Positions 1,061-10,568 of a DNA stretch of 64,000 nucleotides are shown piece after piece. The stretch's first letter is position 1; every line of letters begins with the position of its first letter. Source of the stretch: Dehalococcoidia bacterium (GTDB lineage Bacteria > Chloroflexota > Dehalococcoidia > UBA2979); assembly GCA_963667465.2 (NCBI GenBank), contig CAXXDN010000002.1, positions 736,001 through 800,000 on the forward strand. The letters run 5' to 3'. The translations under genes were made by a program, and so were the position numbers. The notes beneath the pieces were generated by a model. That model did not search any database, was not told the origin of the DNA, and saw only the letters and a list, made by a program, of their open reading frames with translations.

Positions 1061-1087
1061 CGCCGCGATGACGGACGGGAGCCGCGC

Positions 1088-2623
1088 GTGAGCCCGGCCA
1101 GCAACTACGCACGGTTCAGCTATGGGCTGAAGCGCTACACCGACTCGCTGCGGCGCTATATCGACCGCCGCGTGCGCGAGGACTGGTGGGACGAATACGT
1201 CCTTACGAGCCTCCCCGCCGACCAGATCGCGGCCCTCGACCGCGAACGCAAGCTGCACGCCGACGACCTCGACGAGGCGCGCGAGGGCGTGCTGCCCAAG
1301 TCCGGTACCGAGTTCCTCGATGCGCGCCACTTCGCTGCGATCTTCCGGGAGCGCTTCCGCGCCAACGAGCGCACGACGGAACTGATGCGCCAGGTCCAGG
1401 AGCTGCACGACCAGTGGTCCGATCCTCCCGAGGACGACTACGTCACGGAGGACGTCGACCAGGCCCTCAGCGCGATGCACGAGGCGCTGGCGTACTACCA
1501 GCTGCCGGCTGCCGCGGAACTGCTCGCACTGCGCGAGGGCGGCGATCCGCCGCGCAGCACCTACGTGGAACTGAGCGAGGAGATCAAGCGCCATGGCGAC
1601 GGGATGCGGCGTGTCTTCCTCGACTGGGCCGAACGCGAATCGCCCGGCGAGTGGTGGGAGCGGCGCGTCGGCGAGCAGCGACGGACGGCGATCGCACGAC
1701 ATCTCGAGGACACCACGCGGCTGACGTCCGAGGAGCTTGTGGGCCTGCTCGGCCCCGCCGACTTCACGGCGATCGCCCTCGACAACTGCGATCTTAGTGG
1801 CCCGGAGCGCTCGCTGCTGCGCACGGCGCTGCACGTGCGCCGCAGCTGGGCCCACCCTGCGAGCGGCGAGTATCCGGACGGCTACGTGGCAGAGGCCACG
1901 GAGTGGCTTCGCGAGGCCCTCGATACGGTCGCGGACGCCGTAGACGAGCTGTTGGAGCCGATCCCGGCGGACGAGGCCGAGCCGGAAGAGCCGGAGGCGG
2001 CGGAGCCCGAAGCGGCGGCAGAGGAAGCCCGCCGGGTCACCATCGGCGACTACTTCACGTGTGGGATCGTTGCCGCGTTCCTCGGCGCGTTCGCAGTGGC
2101 TCTGGTCCTCGTCGGGCTCGCGTTGCTTGGGACGCGGACCTGGCCGGTCGATCGCGCGCTCGACGTATCGAGCGCGGCCGCCGATGCAGTCGGCGATTTC
2201 GTGGATGGCGTCACCGGCACGGCGCCGCTGGAGGCCACGGCCACCCCAATTCCGACGCGGACGAGCACGCCGACGGCGGCTGCCACGCCGACGCCGACGC
2301 CTGGAGCTACCGCGACGGCCACGACAACGGCGACGCCCACCGCGACGGCGACGCCGACACGCACCGCGACGCCGACCGCAACGCCGCCACCCGCACCCTC
2401 GCTCGAGCGGGCGATCGGGAACACGGATGGCGACGGCGTCTCGCTCCGCGACGACTGCGCTGACGCCGCCCGCTTCTCCGCCCCCGGCGAGGGCTGGCCG
2501 GAGGGCCAGGCGGTCGAGGTGATCGAGGTGGGCAGCGATCGCTGCGAGGGTTGGCTGCTGACACAGGCGGACGGCGTCGCCTCGTGGGTTCGTGAGGAGT
2601 ACGTCGTCGATCGAGAGCAGTAA
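1088..2623 (+). CDS. Membrane protein: two tandem Swt1-like HEPN domains, single TM helix, Pro/Thr linker, C-terminal SH3b-like domain
   Basis: Two ~140-aa helical repeats, each with WW, an LD/LG-x3-F-x2-I segment and a W[SA][DH]P motif (HDQWSD 1406-1423; RRSWAH 1838-1855). Hydrophobic stretch ~2063-2131, (TPTA)n linker, then NTDGDGVSLR...GW...WVREEYV typical of SH3b. Confidence 0.7.
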   Translation: MSPASNYARFSYGLKRYTDSLRRYIDRRVREDWWDEYVLTSLPADQIAALDRERKLHADDLDEAREGVLPKSGTEFLDARHFAAIFRERFRANERTTELMRQVQELHDQWSDPPEDDYVTEDVDQALSAMHEALAYYQLPAAAELLALREGGDPPRSTYVELSEEIKRHGDGMRRVFLDWAERESPGEWWERRVGEQRRTAIARHLEDTTRLTSEELVGLLGPADFTAIALDNCDLSGPERSLLRTALHVRRSWAHPASGEYPDGYVAEATEWLREALDTVADAVDELLEPIPADEAEPEEPEAAEPEAAAEEARRVTIGDYFTCGIVAAFLGAFAVALVLVGLALLGTRTWPVDRALDVSSAAADAVGDFVDGVTGTAPLEATATPIPTRTSTPTAAATPTPTPGATATATTTATPTATATPTRTATPTATPPPAPSLERAIGNTDGDGVSLRDDCADAARFSAPGEGWPEGQAVEVIEVGSDRCEGWLLTQADGVASWVREEYVVDREQ

Positions 2624-2632
2624 CCCGCGCCG

Positions 2633-3427
2633 CTACTGCCGGGGCGGTGGCCGCAGGGCGTAGCTCTCCGGCTCGCGCAGCCACTCGCGGTCCGCGAAGT
2701 AGGCGCGCAACGCTTGCGCGGCCTCGGCGAGCACAGCCTCGCTCGTGGCCGGTGAGCGGGTGTCCAACCAGGGTGCGATGCGGCGTCCCAGCCCGGTCTG
2801 GCGCGCGGCGGCGTCCAGCCAGTCCAGCGTCGGATGCGCGCCCTCCTCCAGGATGCAGGCCAGCCGCGTGAGCGCACTCGCCGCCTCGCCACCCGCGATC
2901 GCCTCGCTCGGGTCGATCGAGGCCCCGTGCGCGCGCTCCAGTGCTTCGAGCGCGCGACCGGCCTGCAGGTAGAGCGGGCGCACCAGGCGCTCCAGTGCGG
3001 AGCCGGGCAGGCGCCGCGCGGTGGCCGCGAGGCGCTCCGCGCGCCCGCTGGGATCGTGCAGCGGGTCCGCGTGACGGAACTCCCAGCGGACCTCCAGCGA
3101 GCGGCGCGAGACGCCAGCGAGCAGCGCCTCGACCCCGCCCGTCGTCGCCACGGTGGTTTCGATGAGTTCGTCGCGGACGCGCCGCAGGCGATGGCGCAGC
3201 AGCGGCTCGCGCCACTCCGCGTCCAGATCGCGCACGTCGGCCGCGTCGACGACCAGCCAGAGGCGCTGCGGGCCCGCCGGAGCGCCCTCGGGCGGCTCCA
3301 CGACGAGCAGGGTGAGTACGTAGGGACGATCGTTCCAGGGCGGCGCCTCCAGCAACGCGCGGGCGCGCGCGGCCAGCGGCACCACGGCCTCGCCGCCGCC
3401 GCCCGGCTCGCTCGCGCGCGCGCTCAC
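2633..3427 (-). CDS. Hypothetical protein, possibly a degenerate nucleotidyltransferase fold plus helical domain
   Basis: Overlaps the stop of the upstream flavoprotein gene by 4 bp. PLHDPSG and HPxxxWL segments resemble Pol-beta/DUF4037-like proteins, but no GS/DxD motif is visible. Confidence 0.5.
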   Translation of the reverse strand: MSARASEPGGGGEAVVPLAARARALLEAPPWNDRPYVLTLLVVEPPEGAPAGPQRLWLVVDAADVRDLDAEWREPLLRHRLRRVRDELIETTVATTGGVEALLAGVSRRSLEVRWEFRHADPLHDPSGRAERLAATARRLPGSALERLVRPLYLQAGRALEALERAHGASIDPSEAIAGGEAASALTRLACILEEGAHPTLDWLDAAARQTGLGRRIAPWLDTRSPATSEAVLAEAAQALRAYFADREWLREPESYALRPPPRQ

Positions 3428-3933
3428 GAGGCACCCTCGAGGCGGACGGCCAGCCGGGCGACGCGCCGGCCGAGGGCGCGCGCCTGCTCGCGGTCGTCGT
3501 CCGTGACCGCGCCGGCTGCCGTCGCGCCGTAGTAGGAACCGGATCGCCGCATGCGCTCGCTCCAGGGCAGGCCGACGAAGATCATGCCGTGCCCGACCAG
3601 CAGGTGCATGAGCTGCTGCAAGGTCGCCTCCAGCCCTCCGTGCGGCGACCAGCCGGCGGCGAACGCGGCGCCCGGCTTGCCCGCCAGTTCGCCGGACTCC
3701 CAGAGGTCGCCCGACTGATCGAGCCAGATCTTCAATTCGCCCGTCACGCCGGTCCAGTTCGGCGAACCGAGGATCAGCGCGTCACAGTGCAGCAGTTCAG
3801 CCGGGTCGGCCTCGCCGATGCGAATGCTGCGCAACGCTGCGCCCTCGATGCTGCGCACGCCCTCGCCCACGGCGTCGGCGAGCTGCTGCACGAGGCCGGC
3901 GCGGCTGTCGTAGACGAGCAGGAGTCGGGTCAT
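3424..3933 (-). CDS. Flavodoxin-like NAD(P)H:quinone oxidoreductase (WrbA family)
   Basis: LLVYDSRAG, DALILGSPNW, LAGKPGAAF, GGLEATL, HGMIFVG, YGAT, ARALGRRVA. ATG at 3933 chosen; TTG at 3960 is the alternative. Confidence 0.88.
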   Translation of the reverse strand: MTRLLLVYDSRAGLVQQLADAVGEGVRSIEGAALRSIRIGEADPAELLHCDALILGSPNWTGVTGELKIWLDQSGDLWESGELAGKPGAAFAAGWSPHGGLEATLQQLMHLLVGHGMIFVGLPWSERMRRSGSYYGATAAGAVTDDDREQARALGRRVARLAVRLEGAS

Positions 3934-3956
3934 CGTCAGCGCCCGGGCCGCCGCGC

Positions 3957-4229
3957 TCAATCCTCGGTCGCTTGCTCGGTGACGACGCGGCGGATGCGGG
4001 TGACGCGCTCATCGATGAGCGCGTCCGGGCCGTCCTCGCCGGGCGGATCGAGGGCGTCGCGCAGCCAGGTGATCAGCACGGCGGCGCCGCCGTAGGCGAT
4101 GAACCACTCGCAGCCCTGGAGCAGCGCGAGCGCACCCGAGTGGCCGTTGCGGCGGTGACGGAACGAGCCCCAGGCCACGCCCGCGACGAACGCGGCCGCG
4201 GCGAGCCCGAACTGCTGCTTCTCGTTCAT
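3957..4229 (-). CDS. Small two-TM hypothetical membrane protein (~90 aa)
   Basis: ATG at 4229 gives MNEKQQFGLAAAAFVAGVAWG...WFIAYGGAAVLITWL. Lies directly upstream of the wrbA-like gene. Confidence 0.6.
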   Translation of the reverse strand: MNEKQQFGLAAAAFVAGVAWGSFRHRRNGHSGALALLQGCEWFIAYGGAAVLITWLRDALDPPGEDGPDALIDERVTRIRRVVTEQATED

Positions 4230-4406: not shown

Positions 4407-5300
4407 TTGCAGGCGTTGAAGGTGGTCCGGCCTACCACCATCGCGGAGGCCATCGAACAACTGAACGAAGGAGGCGACGGCGCCCGTCCGCTCGCGGGCG
4501 GGACCGACGTGATCGTCATCGCCCGGGCGCGAGTCCGGGACATCGACGTACTCGTGGACGTCAAGCGCATTCCGGAGCTGACCGCCATCGAGTGGAACCC
4601 GGACTCGGGGCTCACGATCGGCGCGGCGACGCCGTGCTACGAGCTCTACGGCAACGCCGACGTCGTCCAGAACTACCCGGCGATCATTGACTCCGCGACG
4701 CTGATCGGCGGCACGGGGATCCAGGGGCGCGCCAGCTTCGGCGGGAACCTCTGCAACTCCTCGCCGTCCGGCGACACGATCCCGACGCAGATCGTGCTCG
4801 AGGGCGTCGCGAACATCGCCGGCCCGAACGGCGAGCGCTCCGTGCCCGTCGAGGACTTCTGCACGGGTCCGGGCCGCAACGTGCTCGGGCAGGGCGAGTT
4901 CGTGGTTTCGATCTCGTTCCCCGCGCCCGACCCCAACGGGGGCGCACGCTTCCTGCGCTTCATCCCCCGCAACGAGATGGACATCGCGGTCTGCAACGCT
5001 GCCTCGGCGGTGAAGCTGGACGGCGACACCGTGAGCTGGGCGCGCGTCTCGATCGGTGCGGTGGCGCCGACGCCGCTGCTCGTCCAGAGCGCGGCGGACG
5101 CGCTCGTCGGGAACCCGCTCACGGACGCGACGATCGAGGCGGCCGCGGAAGCTTCACGGGACGCCGCGACGCCGATCGACGACATGCGGGGTTCGATCAA
5201 GCAGCGCAAGCACCTCGCAGCGGTGCTGACCCGGCGCACGCTGCAGCAGGCAGCGGCGCGGGCGCGCGGCGAGGATATCCCGTCGGTGGGAGGACACTAA
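4407..5300 (+). CDS. Xanthine dehydrogenase/CoxM-family FAD-binding (medium) subunit
   Basis: PLAGGTD, LTIGAA, IQGRASFGGNLCNSSPSGD, PIDDMRGS. TTG start at 4407 follows AGGAGG. Confidence 0.93.
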   Translation: MQALKVVRPTTIAEAIEQLNEGGDGARPLAGGTDVIVIARARVRDIDVLVDVKRIPELTAIEWNPDSGLTIGAATPCYELYGNADVVQNYPAIIDSATLIGGTGIQGRASFGGNLCNSSPSGDTIPTQIVLEGVANIAGPNGERSVPVEDFCTGPGRNVLGQGEFVVSISFPAPDPNGGARFLRFIPRNEMDIAVCNAASAVKLDGDTVSWARVSIGAVAPTPLLVQSAADALVGNPLTDATIEAAAEASRDAATPIDDMRGSIKQRKHLAAVLTRRTLQQAAARARGEDIPSVGGH

Positions 5301-5301
5301 C

Positions 5302-5769
5302 GTGACGGACCGCATGATCGTTTCGGCCACCATCAACGGCGAGCCGCTCGAGTTCCTCGCCGATCAGCGTGACAGCCTCCTCGAGGCGCTGCGCGAGCGC
5401 ATCGGCCTGACGGGCACGAAGGAGGGCTGCAACGACGGCAACTGCGGCGCCTGCTCCGTGCTCATGGACGGCCGCCTCGTCAACTCCTGCCTGGTCATGG
5501 CAGCCGAGGTCGAGGGCGCCGACATCACCACCGTCGAGGGCCTGGCGAGCGAGGACGGGCTGATCCCGTTGCAGCAGGCCTTCCTGGAGGAGGCGGCGCT
5601 GCAGTGCGGGATCTGCACCCCCGGCTTCCTCATTGCCTCGAAGGCGCTGCTGGATGCGAACCCGAACCCGACGGAGTACGAGGCCCGCTACTGGCTGGCC
5701 GGCAACCTCTGCCGCTGCACGGGCTACGACAAGATTATCCGCGCGGTGCTCAAGGCCGCCGAGGCATAG
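5302..5769 (+). CDS. CoxS-family (2Fe-2S)-binding small subunit
   Basis: GTKEGCNDGNCGAC, NSCL, QCGICTPG, GNLCRCTGY. Confidence 0.96.
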   Translation: MTDRMIVSATINGEPLEFLADQRDSLLEALRERIGLTGTKEGCNDGNCGACSVLMDGRLVNSCLVMAAEVEGADITTVEGLASEDGLIPLQQAFLEEAALQCGICTPGFLIASKALLDANPNPTEYEARYWLAGNLCRCTGYDKIIRAVLKAAEA

Positions 5770-5812
5770 CGCCTCCCGGGAGAGCCACGCGGAGAGCAGG
5801 CAGGAGAACCAC

Positions 5813-8116
5813 ATGGTCGCCACTGAGAAGCCCGGCAACTACCAGGTCGTCGGCACCCGCCCGATCCGCCATGACGGGACGGACAAGGTCACCGGTCGCG
5901 CCGGGTACGGCGGCGACTACCGGGCCGCGGGAATGCTGTTCGGTCGCGTGCTGCGCAGCCCCCACGCCCACGCCCGTATCAAGAGCATCGACACCTCGAA
6001 GGCAGAGGCTCTCGATGGCGTGCGCGGCGTCATCACCAACGCCGACTTCCCACAACCCGACGACTCGCAGGTGGACATCGGCGAGGGCGCGACGACGAGC
6101 GCCCGCTGGATGCTCGACAACGTGCTTGCCGGCGAGAAGGTGCTCTACACCGGACACGCCGTCGCCGCCGTTGCCGCCACCGACCCGCACATCGCCGAGG
6201 ACGCGCTCGACCTGATCGAGGTCGAGTACGAGGTCCTCGAGCCGGTGATGGACGTGCGCGAGGCGATGGACGAGAACGCGCCGGTGCTGCACGAGTTCCT
6301 GCGCACCGAGCAGATCGCCAGCGCCTTCATGCCCGGCGACATGGTCGGCACGAAGCCGAGCAACGTCGCCAAGCACCTCGAGTTCAGGGCGGGCGACGTG
6401 GATGCCGGCTTCGAGGAGGCCGATGTCGTGGTGGAGCGCGAGTTCACGACCACGATGGCGCACCAGGGCTACATCGAGCCGCACAACGGCAGCGCCTACT
6501 ACAACAAGGACGGGCACATCACGATCTGGAGCTCGACGCAGGGCGCCTTCGGCGTTCGCGACATGACGGCCGGCCTGCTCCAGGTCCCCGTCTCCCAGGT
6601 GACGTGCGAGCCGGTGGAGATCGGTGGCGGCTTCGGCGGCAAGATCGGCATCTACCTGGAGCCGCTGGCGGCGCTGCTCTCGAAGCAGACCGGCAAGCCC
6701 GTCAAGTTCACGATGACCCGCGAGGCGGTGCTGCAAGCGACCGGCCCGACCTCCGGGACGTACATGCGCGTCAAGATCGGCGCGAAGGACGACGGTACCT
6801 TCGTCGCCGCCCACGTCTACCTTGCGTTCGAGGCCGGGGCCTACCCGGGCTCGCCGATGGGGGCTGGCGCGATGTGCGCGCTCGCGCCGTACCAGATCGA
6901 GAACGGCCACATCGAGGGCTACGACGTCGTGCTCAACAAGCCGAAGGTCGCCGCCTACCGCGCCCCGGGCGCGCCGGCCGCCGAGTACGCCGTCGAGTGC
7001 GTGATCGACGAGATCGCACAGCAGCTCGAGATAGACCCGATGGACATCCGCCTCAAGAACGCCGCGGTCGACGGCTCGCGGCGCGTTGACGGCGCCGTCT
7101 TTGGCGTCATCGGCAACGAGCAGGTGATGGAGGTCGTGAAGAACAGCGAGCACTACCGCTCCGAGCTACAGGGCGAGAACCGCGGCCGCGGGGTCGCGAT
7201 GGGCTTCTGGTTCAACGTCGGCATGGAGTCCAGCGCCTACGCCAGCGTTCAGGCCGACGGCACGGTGAGCCTCTCGCTTGGCTCGACGGACATCGGCGGC
7301 ACGCGCGCCTCGATCGCGATGCAGCTCGCCGAGACGCTCGGCATCGCCGCCGAGGACGTGAAGCCGCAGGTGGTAGATACGGACTCCGTGGGCTACACGA
7401 TGGTCACCGGCGGCAGCCGGACGACCTTCGCAGGTGGCTGGGCCGCCTACGAGTCCGCGATGGACATCCGCCGCCAGCTGGAAGAGCGGGCCGCCGCGAT
7501 CTGGGACGTGGACCGCGATCAGGTCAGCTACAGCGAGGGCGGCGTCCATGGCCCCGCCGACGCTGACGGCAACGCACGCTCGATGACGTTCAAGGAGCTG
7601 GCGGGCCAGCTCGCCGGCAGTGGTGGAATGATCCAGGGCCGCGCGGACGTGAACAGCATGGAGGCGGGACCCGCTTTCGCCGGGCACATCGTCGATGTTG
7701 AGGTGGACCCGGAGACCGGCAAGGTCGACATCCTCCGCTACACCGCCGTGCAGGATGTCGGGACCGCGATCCACCCGTCGTACGTCGAGGGTCAGATCCA
7801 GGGCGGCGTCGCCCAGGGTGTCGGCATGGCGCTGACAGAGGAGTACTTCTACGCCGACGACGGCACGCTGCTGAACTCGAGTCTGCTCGACTACCGCATG
7901 CCCACCGCGCTCGACCTGCCGATGATCGAGACGGAGATCGTCGAGGTGCCCAACCCCGGGCACCCCTACGGCGTGCGCGGCGTCGGCGAGGTGCCGATCG
8001 TCCCGCCCGCGCCGGCGATTGCGAACGCCATCGCGGACGCGATCGGCCTGCGCATGAACGAGCTGCCGATGTCGCCGCGGGCGATGCTCGAGGAGCTGCT
8101 CCCCGACGAGGACTAG
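5813..8116 (+). CDS. Xanthine dehydrogenase-family molybdopterin-binding large subunit, paralog 1
   Basis: DKVTGRA, LRSPHAHARI, IGGGFGGK, AYRAPG, GQIQGG, GVRGVGE. ATG at 5813 follows AGGAG. Confidence 0.95.
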   Translation: MVATEKPGNYQVVGTRPIRHDGTDKVTGRAGYGGDYRAAGMLFGRVLRSPHAHARIKSIDTSKAEALDGVRGVITNADFPQPDDSQVDIGEGATTSARWMLDNVLAGEKVLYTGHAVAAVAATDPHIAEDALDLIEVEYEVLEPVMDVREAMDENAPVLHEFLRTEQIASAFMPGDMVGTKPSNVAKHLEFRAGDVDAGFEEADVVVEREFTTTMAHQGYIEPHNGSAYYNKDGHITIWSSTQGAFGVRDMTAGLLQVPVSQVTCEPVEIGGGFGGKIGIYLEPLAALLSKQTGKPVKFTMTREAVLQATGPTSGTYMRVKIGAKDDGTFVAAHVYLAFEAGAYPGSPMGAGAMCALAPYQIENGHIEGYDVVLNKPKVAAYRAPGAPAAEYAVECVIDEIAQQLEIDPMDIRLKNAAVDGSRRVDGAVFGVIGNEQVMEVVKNSEHYRSELQGENRGRGVAMGFWFNVGMESSAYASVQADGTVSLSLGSTDIGGTRASIAMQLAETLGIAAEDVKPQVVDTDSVGYTMVTGGSRTTFAGGWAAYESAMDIRRQLEERAAAIWDVDRDQVSYSEGGVHGPADADGNARSMTFKELAGQLAGSGGMIQGRADVNSMEAGPAFAGHIVDVEVDPETGKVDILRYTAVQDVGTAIHPSYVEGQIQGGVAQGVGMALTEEYFYADDGTLLNSSLLDYRMPTALDLPMIETEIVEVPNPGHPYGVRGVGEVPIVPPAPAIANAIADAIGLRMNELPMSPRAMLEELLPDED

Positions 8117-8153
8117 ACCGCCGCCCCGAGGGGCGACGGAGGCAAGTGACTAC

Positions 8154-8244
8154 CGGCGGCGCCCCTGAGGGTGCCGCCGCTGCGTTCGGCGCGCGGGCAA
8201 CACCCTCGATCCGCCACGGCAGCGGCCGCGGTCGCGTATACAAT
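8154..8244 (+). promoter_or_regulatory. GC-rich hairpin followed by a putative -10 element for the second large subunit
   Basis: CGGCGGCGCCC-CTGA-GGGTGCCGCCG (8154-8179); TACAAT at 8239-8244, ~35 nt before the RBS-preceded ATG at 8280. Confidence 0.4.
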
Positions 8245-8279
8245 CCGGGTACGAGGCCACGGTATGCGAGGAGGATGCG

Positions 8280-10568
8280 ATGGTTGCGACGGACAAGCCC
8301 GCGTACCGCGTGATCGGCAGCCGGCCGGTCCGCCCCGACGGCGCGGACAAGGTCACGGGCCGCGCCCGCTACGGCGCCGACGTGCTGCTTCCGGGGATGC
8401 TCTACGGCCGCGTGCTGCGCAGCCCGCACGCCCACGCCCGGATCGTGCGCATCGACACATCGGAGGCCGAGGCGCTCGCTGGCGTCCGCGGCGTCGCGAC
8501 CTGGGACGACCTGCCGCCGAAGAACTGGGACGAGCTCCCCAACCTCGGCGAGGGCGCGGCCGAGACGCGCTGGATGGCGCGCAACGTCTTCGCGCGCGAC
8601 AAGGCGCTTTATGCCGGCCACGCCATCGCCGCCGTCTGCGCCACCGATCCGCACATCGCCGAGGACGCCCTCGGCCTGATCGAGGTCGAGTACGAGGTGC
8701 TGCCGCCGCTGCTCGACGTGCGCGAGGCGATGAACCCGAACGCGCCACTGCTGCACGACGACCTCTACACCACAGACCTGACCGGTGGTGGCACAGGCGA
8801 TGAGCTGACGAACATCGGCAAGCACCTCGAGTTCCGCTCCGGCGACATCGAGGCCGGGTTCGCAGAGGCCGACGTGATCGTCGATCGCGAGTTCGAGACC
8901 GCGATGGCGCACCAGGGTTACCTCGAGCCGCACAACGGCACGGCGATGTGGAGCGAGGACGGCGAGCTGACCGTCTGGAACAGCTCGCAGGGCCCGTTCG
9001 TGGTGCGCGAGCAGCTGCACATGCTGCTCGATCTACCGCTCTCCAGGGTCAAGGTCGTGCCGATGGAGATCGGAGGAGGTTTCGGGGGAAAGATTCCGGT
9101 CTACATGGAGCCGATGGCCGCGATCCTCTCGAAGAAGAGCGGGCGGCCCGTCAAGATGATCATGACCCGCCAGGAAGTGCTCGAGGCGACCGGCCCGACC
9201 TCCGGCACGTGGGTGCGCGCGAAGATCGGCGCCAGGCGGGACGGGCGCATCGTAGCCGCCGAGATCGAGCTGGCCTTCGAAGCGGGCGCCTTCCCCGGAT
9301 CGCCGTTCTCCGCGGGCGCGCTTTGCGCGCTGGGCCCGTACGACATCGAGAACCAGCGCGTCGAGGGCTGGGACGTCTGCGTCAACAAGCCGAAGGTCGC
9401 TGCCTACCGGGCACCCGGTGCTCCGGCGACTGCATTCGCCGTCGAGTCCATCCTCGATGAGCTGGCGGATCTGCTGGAGCGCGACCCGATCGACCTGCGC
9501 CTGCAGAATGCCGCCCACGAGGGCACTCGCCTCTCGGACGGGACGCCGCTCGGTGTGATCGGCAACGTCGAGGTGATGGAGAGCGTCCAGGGCAGCGAGC
9601 ACTACCGCTCCGAGCTGCAAGGCGAGAATCGGGGCCGCGGCGTGGCGCTGGGCTACTGGCGCAACGCAGGCATGGAAACGAGCGCCCACGCCGTGATCAA
9701 CCAGGACGGGACCATCAATCTGGTCGTCGGCACGGTGGACATCGGTGGGCTGCGCGCGACGCACGCGATGCAGCTCGCCGAGGCCCTGGGCCTCGAGTAC
9801 GACGACATTCGCCCGCAGGTGGTCGATACTGCCGCGGTCGGGCGCAACTCGGTAACCGGCGGGAGCCGCAGTACCTTCGCAGGCGGCTGGGCGATGCACG
9901 AGCTGGCGCAGGATCTGCGCGCACAGCTCGAGGCCCGCGCCGCACAGATCTGGGGCGTCCAGCGCGACAATGTCTCCTACGGCGACGACGCGGTTGTCCG
10001 CGGCCCGGCGGCCGTGGACGGCTCGGAGCGCTCGTTCAGCTTCAAGGAGCTGGCGGGGCAGCTCTACGGCAGCGGCGGGATGGTCCAGGCGCGCGCGGAC
10101 GTCAGCCCCACCACCGTCGGTCCCGCCTACGCCGGACACGTCGTGGATGTCGAGGTGGACCCGGAAACCGGCAAGGTCGACATCCTGCGCTACACGGCGG
10201 TGCAGGACGTGGGCAAGGCGATCCACCCGTCCTACGTCGAGGGCCAGCTGCAGGGTGGGGCGCTGCAAGGCATCGGCATGGCACTGACCGAAGAGTACTT
10301 CTACGGCGACGATGGCGTGATGCGGAACTCGAGCCTGCTCGACTACCGGATGCCGACCGCCCTCGATACGCCGATGATCGACGCGGTGCTCGTGGAAGTG
10401 GCGAATCCGGGTCACCCCTACGGGGTGCGTGGCGTGGGCGAGGTACCGATCGTCCCGCCGCTGGCGGCGATCACGAACGCGATCCACGCTGCGACCGGCG
10501 TGCGCATGCAGAAGCTGCCGGCCTCGCCGCGCGCGGTCCTCGACGAGCTGCTCTCGGAAGAGGCATAA
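8280..10568 (+). CDS. Xanthine dehydrogenase-family molybdopterin-binding large subunit, paralog 2
   Basis: Same motif set as paralog 1 (IGGGFGGK, AYRAPG, GVRGVGE) and colinear with it. GAGGAGG RBS. Confidence 0.95.
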   Translation: MVATDKPAYRVIGSRPVRPDGADKVTGRARYGADVLLPGMLYGRVLRSPHAHARIVRIDTSEAEALAGVRGVATWDDLPPKNWDELPNLGEGAAETRWMARNVFARDKALYAGHAIAAVCATDPHIAEDALGLIEVEYEVLPPLLDVREAMNPNAPLLHDDLYTTDLTGGGTGDELTNIGKHLEFRSGDIEAGFAEADVIVDREFETAMAHQGYLEPHNGTAMWSEDGELTVWNSSQGPFVVREQLHMLLDLPLSRVKVVPMEIGGGFGGKIPVYMEPMAAILSKKSGRPVKMIMTRQEVLEATGPTSGTWVRAKIGARRDGRIVAAEIELAFEAGAFPGSPFSAGALCALGPYDIENQRVEGWDVCVNKPKVAAYRAPGAPATAFAVESILDELADLLERDPIDLRLQNAAHEGTRLSDGTPLGVIGNVEVMESVQGSEHYRSELQGENRGRGVALGYWRNAGMETSAHAVINQDGTINLVVGTVDIGGLRATHAMQLAEALGLEYDDIRPQVVDTAAVGRNSVTGGSRSTFAGGWAMHELAQDLRAQLEARAAQIWGVQRDNVSYGDDAVVRGPAAVDGSERSFSFKELAGQLYGSGGMVQARADVSPTTVGPAYAGHVVDVEVDPETGKVDILRYTAVQDVGKAIHPSYVEGQLQGGALQGIGMALTEEYFYGDDGVMRNSSLLDYRMPTALDTPMIDAVLVEVANPGHPYGVRGVGEVPIVPPLAAITNAIHAATGVRMQKLPASPRAVLDELLSEEA

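Follow-up and report, generated by a model that had tools for sequence, protein, structure and literature searches.

A tandem-HEPN membrane protein with a partly degenerate Rx4H motif and an SH3b-like ectodomain in sponge-associated Dehalococcoidia

Whether a bacterial protein that combines two HEPN-like repeats, one membrane-spanning helix and an SH3b-like ectodomain is a receptor RNase, or whether its repeats serve mainly for binding, is the question raised by one coding sequence in the window, the whole 64,000-nt stretch of DNA that was analysed. The CDS (1088..2623, + strand, GTG start, stop included) encodes a membrane protein of 511 aa, and a Shine-Dalgarno-like GGGAG, read directly at 1077..1081 (+), lies 6 nt 5' of the start codon. 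Seventeen full-length homologues with 61–95% identity were found, all starting at the same MSPA... N-terminus. Over the whole CDS dN/dS was 0.19–0.31, indicating purifying selection, and it was well below 1 in each folded part; because of these values and the full-length homologues, the protein is regarded as real. Its layout holds as follows: tandem HEPN repeats, an acidic linker, one transmembrane (TM) helix, a Pro/Thr stalk and a two-Cys SH3b-like module.

The linker (aa 297–318; 1976..2041, +) has a net charge of −6 and is poorly conserved (mean identity 43%). The single TM helix was placed by hydropathy at aa ~322–349 (2051..2134, +); windows of 19 aa with a Kyte-Doolittle mean above 1.6 were confined to aa 319–354, with a peak of 2.74, and R314-R315 precede the helix. 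It is followed by a conserved juxtamembrane segment (aa 350–385; 2135..2242, +; mean identity 82%), in which R350, T351, W352, P353 and V354 occupy invariant alignment columns (R-T-W-P-V). The stalk (aa 386–438; 2243..2401, +) was delimited by composition, its 53 residues including 22 T, 13 P and 12 A, and selection on it is relaxed (dN/dS 0.29–1.02). Charge, hydropathy and composition therefore confirmed the acidic linker, the one helix behind two arginines and the long Pro/Thr stalk of the preliminary description. The cytoplasmic N-terminus that it also claimed received indirect support: the first 60 aa hold no hydrophobic segment (Kyte-Doolittle maximum 0.09), and since a signal peptide is absent and the same ectodomain is present in lipoproteins with a lipobox, a single-pass N-in/C-out orientation is indicated. 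Searches with the complete protein added only compositional matches, namely linker and stalk to GltJ in NCBIfam (26.7 bits, where 450 are required) and linker-like low-complexity regions in the PDB with the full-length profile (chitinase, E 0.0032, profile positions 383–459).

The ectodomain module (aa 439–511, ~73 aa; 2402..2620, +) is under purifying selection (dN/dS 0.06–0.21). Both of its cysteines are invariant in the 11 rows of the module alignment (A4), and exactly two cysteines are present in 52 of 53 module copies; the conserved pair, Cys457 and Cys486, probably forms a disulphide. Pfam SH3_3 (PF08239; cut-off 27 bits) was blind to the module directly, yielding no match at E<=10 for aa 425–511 and none at E<=5 in any of the 18 family members, and a PDB profile search with the module gave 0 matches at E<=10. 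A three-copy paralogue (P0033), however, reached 22.9 bits (E 1e-4) with the same model. When the 53 module copies were compared by hhalign with 25 SH3_3 domains, the probability was 88.5% (E 2.7e-6, 63 columns). The SH3_3 set consisted of domains passing the cut-off in related genomes, 5 of the 30 fetched having been removed because of a stop codon in the flanking sequence. All 22 controls (2 reversed and 20 column-shuffled alignments) stayed at a probability of at most 1.8% with E>=0.027, and the HEPN repeats compared with SH3_3 gave 0.3–0.4%. In Atlas language-model features the module scored 0.96 to SH3_3 clusters. The AF2 model of aa 433–511, with a mean pLDDT of 42 and beta strands only near the C-terminus, was too poor for a fold search. 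The module is thus linked by profile comparison to bacterial SH3 (SH3_3) domains, of which it would be a divergent form, in keeping with the SH3b-like domain with two cysteines that had been proposed. It shares with the cell-wall-binding SH3_3 domains (PF08239) the profile similarity, the extracytoplasmic location and tandem copies in paralogues, but differs in lying under the Pfam cut-off and in carrying the invariant Cys pair and a G-N-T-x-G-x-G-V-x-L-R-D-D-C signature. Genes for Mur ligases and PBPs are present in the genome, so that murein synthesis is plausible.

The same ectodomain was found behind Zn-ribbon-like heads (P0038, P0039, P0044, P0049, P0054), behind a ComEA-like HHH head (P0064, PF12836) and in the lipobox lipoproteins P0040 and P0057. 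The window's genome holds five module copies in three proteins; a scan of this whole genome (G000) with SH3_3 pointed to three other places, none of them at the HEPN gene. The ectodomain is therefore not specific to the tandem-HEPN protein, being common to several unrelated cytoplasmic heads of the clade. In the searches made, the two-Cys module was confined to one Chloroflexi group, where it may be a common link from cytoplasm to wall among sponge-associated members.

On the cytoplasmic side, two related helical repeats had been described, and the relation was evident from hhalign: repeat 1 (aa 1–152; 1088..1543, +) and repeat 2 (aa 153–296; 1544..1975, +) matched with a probability of 97.2% (E 4.1e-11, 123 columns). 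In the window protein itself, PF18731 matched repeat 1 at aa 15–132 with 18.1 bits (E 0.0034), below the Pfam cut-off of 27.5 bits. Matches at E<=5 were obtained in 12 of the 18 family members (best 2.7e-6), and one member, P0016, passed the cut-off on repeat 2 (28.1 bits, aa 166–275). A phmmer search with aa 1–300 returned 12 distant proteins (E 5e-12 to 5.4e-4, 27–35% identity), all aligned to repeat 1, and every one of them passed the PF18731 cut-off (30.8–52.9 bits). Repeat 1 is assigned to the Swt1-like HEPN domains because all of these relatives pass the model, and repeat 2 is linked to it through hhalign. Judged from these profiles, both repeats are Swt1/Abi2-type HEPN domains that form an internally duplicated pair, and the Swt1-like HEPN call of the preliminary description stood, HEPN structures also being enriched among the best fold matches.

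In the VIA structure comparison, repeat 1 matched sacsin HEPN, SO_3166 and AbiF, and repeat 2 matched 2hsb, 1wwp, 7ae2 and 4nqf. In the VIA-wide comparison, HEPN proteins occupied 12 of the 50 rows listed, covering both repeats; five are HEPN by title, and the remaining seven are counted as HEPN on other grounds, Table 1 of PMC3710099 among them. With Z of only 5.2–7.3, the HEPN rows stay under the tool's level of confidence for helical bundles. AF2 modelled the N-terminal part as all-helical, and the five models disagree on the packing of the two repeats (mean pLDDT 73.7, 63.0, 46.9, 44.9 and 35.7). When the N-terminal model was compared with the PDB by Foldseek, nothing reached E<=0.001, and designed helical proteins headed the list. 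A homodimer prediction with two copies of aa 1–300 scored 0.00 in a run made without controls, and so weighs neither for nor against dimerisation.

The motifs were located as previously described. Repeat 2 carries the Rx4H motif R251-R-S-W-A-H256 (1838..1855, +), while repeat 1 carries H107-D-Q-W-S-D112 (1406..1423, +) at the site aligned with RNxWAH of its relatives. The Rx4-6H feature of catalytic-type HEPN domains is thus satisfied by repeat 2 of the window protein and not by repeat 1, in which both residues are lost throughout the family (R at 107 and H at 112 in none of 18 members). In the best AF2 model (mean pLDDT 73.7), the repeat 2 motif spans the end of helix 238–255, where R251 lies, and the beginning of the loop behind it, a placement typical of HEPN motifs in the part of PMC3710099 covered here. 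Of the cytoplasmic parts, repeat 1 is nevertheless the most conserved (mean identity 79%, dN/dS 0.09–0.37), and this strong conservation indicates that the motif-less repeat is functional and not decaying.

The conservation of the repeat 2 motif across homologues was only partly as expected. R251 and W254 are present in all 18 members and, together with P257 and many arginines, are invariant; H256 is kept in only 14, being replaced by Y, Y, R and R in the others. These replacements need three changes on the tree, on approximately three independent branches, and the proteins concerned remain under purifying selection, with dN/dS of repeat 2 still at 0.27–0.39 in the genome with an H256R form (L002). 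The residue after the motif R is R in 17 of 18 members (R252 in the window protein) and H in one, whereas N follows it in 11 of the 12 distant relatives of repeat 1; the polar N/D/H at this position, a feature of catalytic-type HEPN domains, is consequently absent in the window protein and in 17 of 18 members. According to the covered part of PMC3710099, RNase L, RloC and PrrC all require the motif H, KEN draws on the polar residue that follows R, and HEPN domains lacking the motif are interpreted as nucleic-acid binders. The catalytic competence of repeat 2, as far as its residues indicate, is uncertain.

The reading put forward in the preliminary description is that of an Ire1-like receptor RNase, in which a ligand or clustering of the SH3b ectodomains would pair repeat-2 domains into a composite site that cleaves RNA, repeat 1 acting as cis-inhibitor or scaffold. 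HEPN enzymes build composite active sites from two domains. A site formed between repeats 1 and 2 of one molecule would hold one motif only, and by analogy with such enzymes activity would require a partner molecule. The retention of R..H in the window protein and most of its family is consistent with this account, as are the architecture of cytoplasmic HEPN, one TM helix and ectodomain, and the high identity of the juxtamembrane segment, as a signal-transmitting element would be likely to show; for TM-linked HEPN proteins, the covered part of PMC3710099 puts forward this logic too. The independent replacements of H256 under purifying selection argue against it, as does the helper N after the motif R, missing in all 18 members. 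The ectodomain is moreover a shared generic module and not a dedicated sensor, and no kinase, pseudokinase or KEN family came up when the protein was scanned with Pfam, whole or in parts, so that a kinase or nucleotide-binding switch as in Ire1 or RNase L was not seen. We consider this reading unlikely. A bolder form of it, which would be quite improbable, makes the protein a kinase-less bacterial counterpart of Ire1: clustering of the SH3b-like domains on the cell wall, or their release on wall damage or phage attack, would pair the motif-bearing second HEPN domains of two molecules into a composite active site; until then, the motif-less HEPN would cover the pairing face within the monomer as a built-in pseudo-substrate partner; and proteins with H256Y or H256R would serve as decoys or dominant-negative regulators.

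Comparison with known systems places the protein close to a class that has been predicted. The covered part of Anantharaman et al. 2013 (PMC3710099) records fusions of TM helices with HEPN domains of the Swt1/Abi2 family and proposes for them Ire1-like, stimulus-dependent RNA degradation at the membrane, without biochemical characterisation; in the literature searched, no TM-linked HEPN protein has been demonstrated to translate a stimulus at the surface into RNA degradation. The earlier statement that no known system has such a layout was accordingly only half sustained: a tandem HEPN-TM-SH3b protein was not matched by any paper in the literature searched, but TM-linked Swt1/Abi2 HEPN domains as such were catalogued in 2013. 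The STY4199-type TM-HEPN proteins resemble it in having a Swt1/Abi2-type HEPN inside, a single TM helix and a globular domain on the opposite side. As described in the covered part of that paper, they carry one motif-bearing HEPN C-terminal to the TM helix and an all-alpha domain before it, and the window protein is set apart from this description by two HEPN domains N-terminal to the helix, followed by the stalk and the SH3b-like module. With Ire1 and RNase L there is a working analogy only, of a sensor on one side and a pairing-dependent HEPN-type RNase on the other, Ire1 also being single-pass; the present protein is bacterial, has an SH3b-like module instead of a luminal chaperone-binding sensor, and is not a member of that group. 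The protein is an unusual variant of a class of membrane-bound RNA-cutting sensors that is so far only predicted.

The C-terminal dyad of eukaryotic Swt1 offers another comparison. It belongs to the same Pfam family (PF18731) and is likewise a tandem HEPN pair with degenerate motif; in the covered part of PMC3710099, this inactive dyad with its degenerate Rx4-6H is interpreted as RNA-sensing and not catalytic. Eukaryotic Swt1 is soluble, associated with the nuclear pore and cuts by its PIN nuclease, whereas the window protein has no PIN domain, is membrane-anchored and keeps R..H in one repeat.

The explanation we favour, though tentatively and as something short of probable, is that of a membrane-tethered HEPN pseudo-dimer with a generic wall-binding ectodomain, whose function in the family is likelier to be binding or sequestration than catalysis. 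Repeats 1 and 2 would pair as one HEPN pseudo-dimer at the inner face of the membrane, where it would handle RNA or another phosphate-rich ligand. Variants with R251 and H256, the window protein included, may cleave RNA weakly or conditionally, and the natural H256Y and H256R variants would only bind; if they do, a family-wide function in binding or sequestration is more likely than canonical HEPN catalysis. Since the window protein itself satisfies Rx4H, it may still be an active RNase. A non-catalytic role would run parallel to that proposed for the inactive dyad of eukaryotic Swt1, and would give the RNA-sensing dyad a bacterial counterpart. The ectodomain, as the generic envelope-binding module of the clade, would anchor or position the protein on the wall; it could also relay the state of the envelope, though not as a dedicated ligand sensor evolved for the HEPN protein. 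With a motif-less repeat, a motif-bearing repeat and sister lineages in which the catalytic His is swapped, the family forms a compact test case.

When considering the nature of the ligand, the charge of the protein has to be taken into account. The 296 cytoplasmic residues carry a strongly negative net charge of −25. The repeats range from −9 to −19, whereas the canonical relatives, 12 distant proteins, lie at −5 to +3, and this acidity is a poor fit with general RNA binding. Neighbouring proteins in the same genome are acidic too (CoxL, −6.8 per 100 aa). The acidic surface and the partly lost motif would suit a reading without RNA, in which the degenerate HEPN dyad is a platform for proteins or small nucleotides and the whole protein a structural or regulatory membrane-to-wall tether, one of a clade-specific set built as head-TM-stalk-SH3b. 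The TM-stalk-module chassis indeed carries unrelated small heads, and in the covered part of PMC3710099 the motif is lost in HEPN substrate-binding domains of nucleotidyltransferases. However, the invariant R251, W254 and P257 and the many invariant arginines suggest a conserved phosphate-binding site, and we give this reading a low probability.

One further point in its favour comes from the adjacent gene (2633..3427, − strand, 264 aa), which is convergent with the HEPN gene, tail-to-tail at 10 nt. It is nucleotidyltransferase/DUF4037-like by language-model (Atlas) features only, without a Pfam match, and is given here as context and not as a shown partner. This neighbour is not co-inherited with the HEPN gene, being present in all five genomes of the genus examined that lack it. 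A HEPN-MNT toxin-antitoxin pair was considered and discarded: the neighbour is convergent and not co-oriented, and its retention in the genomes without the HEPN gene speaks against a dedicated MNT partnership.

A role as an abortive-infection or defence effector, in which phage adsorption or envelope damage outside would release a toxic HEPN activity inside and arrest the cell, was weighed separately. The nearest relatives of repeat 1 are of conflict type, HEPN with a DUF499 AAA+ domain (P0029) and HEPN with DUF4268 (P0023), architectures that the covered part of PMC3710099 places with R-M and defence operons, and the covered part of a 2026 review (PMC12948488) counts 'HEPN-TM' among the anti-phage systems of PICIs. 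Against these stand the weak conservation of the motif, the lack of a gene-specific antitoxin-like partner, and the search of PADLOC-DB 2.0, which gave no model match, only PprDinG at E 0.048 (9.8 bits). A defence island was likewise rejected: the 15 kb upstream and the downstream genes examined are metabolic or housekeeping and include no defence, integrase or transposase genes. Upstream lie genes for phosphoglycerate mutase, TIM, MiaA, ACAD, GNAT, aminotransferase and dCTP deaminase, and further for a Gmad2-domain protein, an HflX-like GTPase, CoA-transferase and ACAD. This reading appears improbable, although the gene is patchy within its genus, fast-evolving and broken in one genome, as would suit it.

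The carriers are uncultured sponge-associated Chloroflexi, and the gene was confined to some members of a single Dehalococcoidia genus. The tandem form was absent from the 20 remaining genera of the family (80 genomes) and from the other 200 genomes of a 201-genome class sample. A PF18731 scan of G000 gave 0 matches at E<=0.001, being so insensitive that it missed even the gene at 1088..2623, and it has no bearing on paralogues. The flanking acyl-CoA dehydrogenase was not matched in five non-carrier genomes at E<=1e-100, a threshold that is probably too strict. Within the genus, 11 of 19 genomes hold the tandem form, one of them broken (G261/L006). In L002 the HEPN protein is 69% identical, compared with 95% for the flanking acyl-CoA dehydrogenase. 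The patchy distribution, the fast evolution and the defence-type nearest relatives suggest an accessory role in stress or conflict.

The coding sequence of the HEPN membrane protein (1088..2623, + strand) appeared in the ORF listing as a single long frame of 511 aa with a GTG start, preceded 6 nt upstream by GGGAG. A co-oriented acyl-CoA dehydrogenase gene lies upstream, its stop codon 27 nt before the start of this gene. In a word-indexed search, aa 1-300 matched 18 proteins, 17 of which were full-length (508-557 aa, 61-95% identical) and shared the MSPA... start; the remaining one was a 289-aa piece.

Pairwise dN/dS values, obtained from codon alignments with four syntenic loci, were 0.19-0.31 for the whole gene. 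By segment, they ranged over 0.09-0.37 for repeat 1 (aa 1-152), 0.21-0.39 for repeat 2 (aa 153-296), 0.18-0.26 for the TM and juxtamembrane part, 0.29-1.02 for the Pro/Thr stalk (aa 386-438) and 0.06-0.21 for the C-terminal module (aa 439-511). It was evident that this is a real gene under selection.

Comparison of the whole protein with Pfam returned no family other than HEPN_Swt1 (PF18731; E 0.0034, 18.1 bits, aa 15-132), below the 27.5-bit cut-off. With aa 1-300 as query, phmmer was run exhaustively against 1.84 billion representatives and yielded 14 proteins: two belonging to the family and 12 distant relatives with 27-35% identity (E 5e-12 to 5.4e-4), the alignment being limited to aa ~3-155 in all 12. 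The Swt1-like HEPN assignment made in the preliminary description was borne out by these relatives, each of which passed the PF18731 cut-off (30.8-52.9 bits), and by family member P0016, whose second repeat (aa 166-275) passed with 28.1 bits. Some of the distant relatives carry conflict-system partners, namely DUF499 AAA+ (P0029) and DUF4268 (P0023).

The kinship of the two N-terminal repeats, also proposed there, was recovered by hhalign, in which family alignments of aa 1-152 and aa 153-296 matched with a probability of 97.2% (E 4.1e-11, 123 columns). The two halves therefore arose by duplication of a single Swt1-like HEPN domain. The cytoplasmic part carries an acidic net charge of -25 across 296 aa; per repeat, the value was -9 to -19 across the family, and much less acidic (-5 to +3) in the 12 distant relatives, which have a single domain.

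The AF2 model of aa 1-300, built from a 15-row alignment, was all-helical (mean pLDDT 73.7, pTM 0.65), with strong disagreement among the five models (pLDDT 73.7 down to 35.7). In the model, the end of helix 238-255 carries R251 and the loop after it H256, matching the position given for the HEPN motif in the 2013 survey (Anantharaman et al., PMC3710099). Foldseek with the N-terminal model gave no match at E<=0.001. The VIA search, which does not depend on Foldseek, ranked Csm6 (6tug, Z 7.3) and the sacsin HEPN domain (3o10, Z 7.2) first, followed by a Cas nuclease RNP (9fcv, Z 7.1) and SO_3166 (5yep, Z 6.8), all values lying below the level rated safe by the tool for helical bundles. Among the 50 VIA matches listed were also 8xdj, 8vz6 (AbiF), 2hsb, 1wwp, 3c8g, 7ae2, 4nqf and 1jog, some structures matching repeat 1 and others repeat 2. 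These predicted-fold matches were regarded as supportive of HEPN identity, not decisive, the main evidence being the chain of sequence matches.

In the distant relatives the motif reads A-R-N-x-W/x-A-H, with Rx4H in 12 of 12 and N after R in 11 of 12. Repeat 1 carries H, Q or Y at position 107 (the R site) and D, G or R at position 112 (the H site), R and H respectively being found in none of the 18 family members. In repeat 2, R251, W254 and P257 were present in 18/18, while residue 252 was R in 17, H in one and N in none. The earlier reading of Rx4H in repeat 2 and its absence from repeat 1 held for the window protein. Across the family, H256 was kept in 14 of 18 proteins, with Y at this site in P0013 and P0018, and R in P0015 and P0017. 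A maximum-likelihood tree built from the 18 N-terminal regions requires three changes at this position, and its starred branches force at least two. At locus L002, of the H256R lineage, repeat 2 still had a dN/dS of 0.27-0.39.

A second family feature is the His of D-x-x-H-F, between helices 2 and 3, conserved in repeat 1 (H81, 18/18) and in 11/12 distant relatives and replaced by D225 in repeat 2. Each repeat is therefore without a different conserved feature, since repeat 1 lost Rx4H and repeat 2 lost this His. According to PMC3710099, the motif His is indispensable to RNase L, RloC and PrrC, the polar residue after the motif R contributes in KEN, HEPN domains without the motif are read as nucleic-acid binders, and eukaryotic Swt1 is listed as an inactive HEPN dyad.

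In 19-aa hydropathy windows, the only hydrophobic stretch was aa 319-354 (peak 2.74); no signal peptide was seen, the first 60 aa reaching 0.09 at most. An acidic linker of low conservation and RR lead up to the TM helix, directly after which stands the invariant R-T-W-P-V-D-R-A (window 2135-2160, aa 350-358) of a conserved segment; the T/P/A stalk and the ~73-aa module come next. The linker, RR, single TM helix and stalk accordingly stand as first described. Since the module also occurs in lipoproteins, it would lie outside the cell, which supports an N-in/C-out orientation.

Direct evidence for the nature of the module was sparse: it had no Pfam match in the window protein or family members, its AF2 model was of low confidence (pLDDT 42), and a profile search of the PDB gave 0 matches. 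By language-model features it adjoined SH3_3 clusters (score 0.96), 23 of 30 matches carrying SH3_3. As a reference, 30 SH3_3 domains above the Pfam cut-off were taken from related genomes, of which five with flanks running into a stop codon were dropped and 25 aligned. Against these, 53 module copies matched in hhalign with a probability of 88.5% (E 2.7e-6, 63 columns), and two Cys were present in 52 of the 53, in line with the two-Cys SH3b-like domain originally suggested. Because the controls (two reversed, 20 column-shuffled) were far weaker (probability <=1.8%, E>=0.027), the module is assigned, at profile level, as a divergent SH3b-like domain.

Elsewhere in the same organism group, 1-3 tandem copies follow a Zn-ribbon-like head, TM helix and Pro-rich stalk (P0038, P0039, P0044, P0049, P0054). 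The module also occurs behind a ComEA-like HHH head (P0064) and in lipobox lipoproteins (P0040, P0057); a three-copy fragment, P0033, matched SH3_3 with E 1e-4 and 22.9 bits, under the 27-bit Pfam cut-off. The window's own genome (G000) encodes five copies in three proteins, one with a Cys-rich head. Its two further module proteins, at G000:C1:~921700-922900 (L016-L018) and L019 937..1710, both have the layout small Cys-rich/Zn-ribbon head, TM, Pro/Thr stalk and SH3b-like module, with three tandem modules in one and a single module in the other. With P0064, P0040 and P0057 included, they look like a clade-specific family of wall-linked membrane proteins that have one ectodomain in common. As this genome encodes Mur ligases and PBP transpeptidases, murein is a plausible candidate ligand.

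The domain architecture is demonstrated; the function is a matter of inference. The strongest constraint fell on motif-less repeat 1 and on R251/W254/P257, not on the catalytic His. The family-wide function is therefore more likely to be ligand binding than canonical cleavage, the ligand being RNA or something else that bears phosphate, held at the membrane by the HEPN domains as a pseudo-dimer. The window protein, in which R..H is kept, may still have RNase activity, weak or conditional. Since the ectodomain appears to be a shared module of wall-binding type, anchoring or positioning is favoured over a dedicated sensor. Signalling via the conserved juxtamembrane segment is possible.

The primary report of 'HEPN-TM' is reportedly a 2022 paper on PICI-encoded immunity. 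A 2026 review (PMC12948488) counts 'HEPN-TM' among the anti-phage systems of PICIs. Three groups of TM-linked HEPN proteins appear in the 2013 survey, one being of Abi2/Swt1 type with the order alpha-domain, TM, HEPN; the role proposed there is an Ire1-like sensing at the surface that is linked to RNA stability (PMC3710099). TM-linked HEPN proteins are thus a known, though uncharacterised, kind, which qualifies the earlier claim of a layout without precedent. A protein joining tandem HEPN domains to a TM helix, a Pro/Thr stalk and an SH3b-like domain was not found in the literature searched and is apparently undescribed there.

In the species-level genome collection, six loci were found, all in Dehalococcoidia/Chloroflexi MAGs, and all six kept the order acyl-CoA dehydrogenase, HEPN gene, convergent 264-aa gene, flavodoxin-like gene, coxM-coxS-coxL. 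At L002, the neighbours were 79-97% identical (acyl-CoA dehydrogenase 95%), compared with 69% for the HEPN gene. At L006 (genome G261), a frame change near aa 180 divides the HEPN gene (L006 8001-9523, G261:C1:90130-91028) into two called proteins, P0020 (179 aa, with one TGA) and P0019 (289 aa); either a pseudogene or a fault in the assembly could account for this. Among 99 genomes of the taxonomic family, the tandem form was confined to one genus, where 11 of 19 genomes have it. A class-wide sample of 201 genomes contained it only in G000, eight others having distant single-HEPN matches. In sponge metagenome runs, 0.85 and 0.71 of the sequence's sampled words were present.

The 264-aa gene (2633-3427, - strand) and the HEPN gene converge tail-to-tail, their ORF ends separated by 9 nt. 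It had no Pfam match and grouped, by language-model features only, with NTP_transf_2/DUF4037/Ant-IIb-type nucleotidyltransferases (score 0.95-0.96). HEPN proteins and nucleotidyltransferases are classical partners; however, the 264-aa gene is retained (47-53% identity) in five of five genus genomes without the HEPN gene, which form a deeper branch.

The interval from an HflX-like GTPase gene to the 264-aa gene is a variable slot, as seen in L020 (G000:C2:722001-737100) versus L012 (G092). Carriers have CoA-transferase III, acyl-CoA dehydrogenase and the HEPN gene there, and G092 has Cu/Zn superoxide dismutase. In L020 and L012 this interval showed no integrase, transposase or tRNA, and among the genes of the 15 kb upstream of the HEPN gene none of mobile or defence type was seen. 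Further downstream, a flavodoxin/FMN-reductase-like gene (3424-3960, - strand) precedes, on the opposite strand, a coxM-coxS-coxL type molybdenum hydroxylase cluster (4440-10568, + strand). The latter includes tandem cox large-subunit paralogues (5813-8116 and 8280-10568, + strand), which are ~66% mutually identical in related loci.
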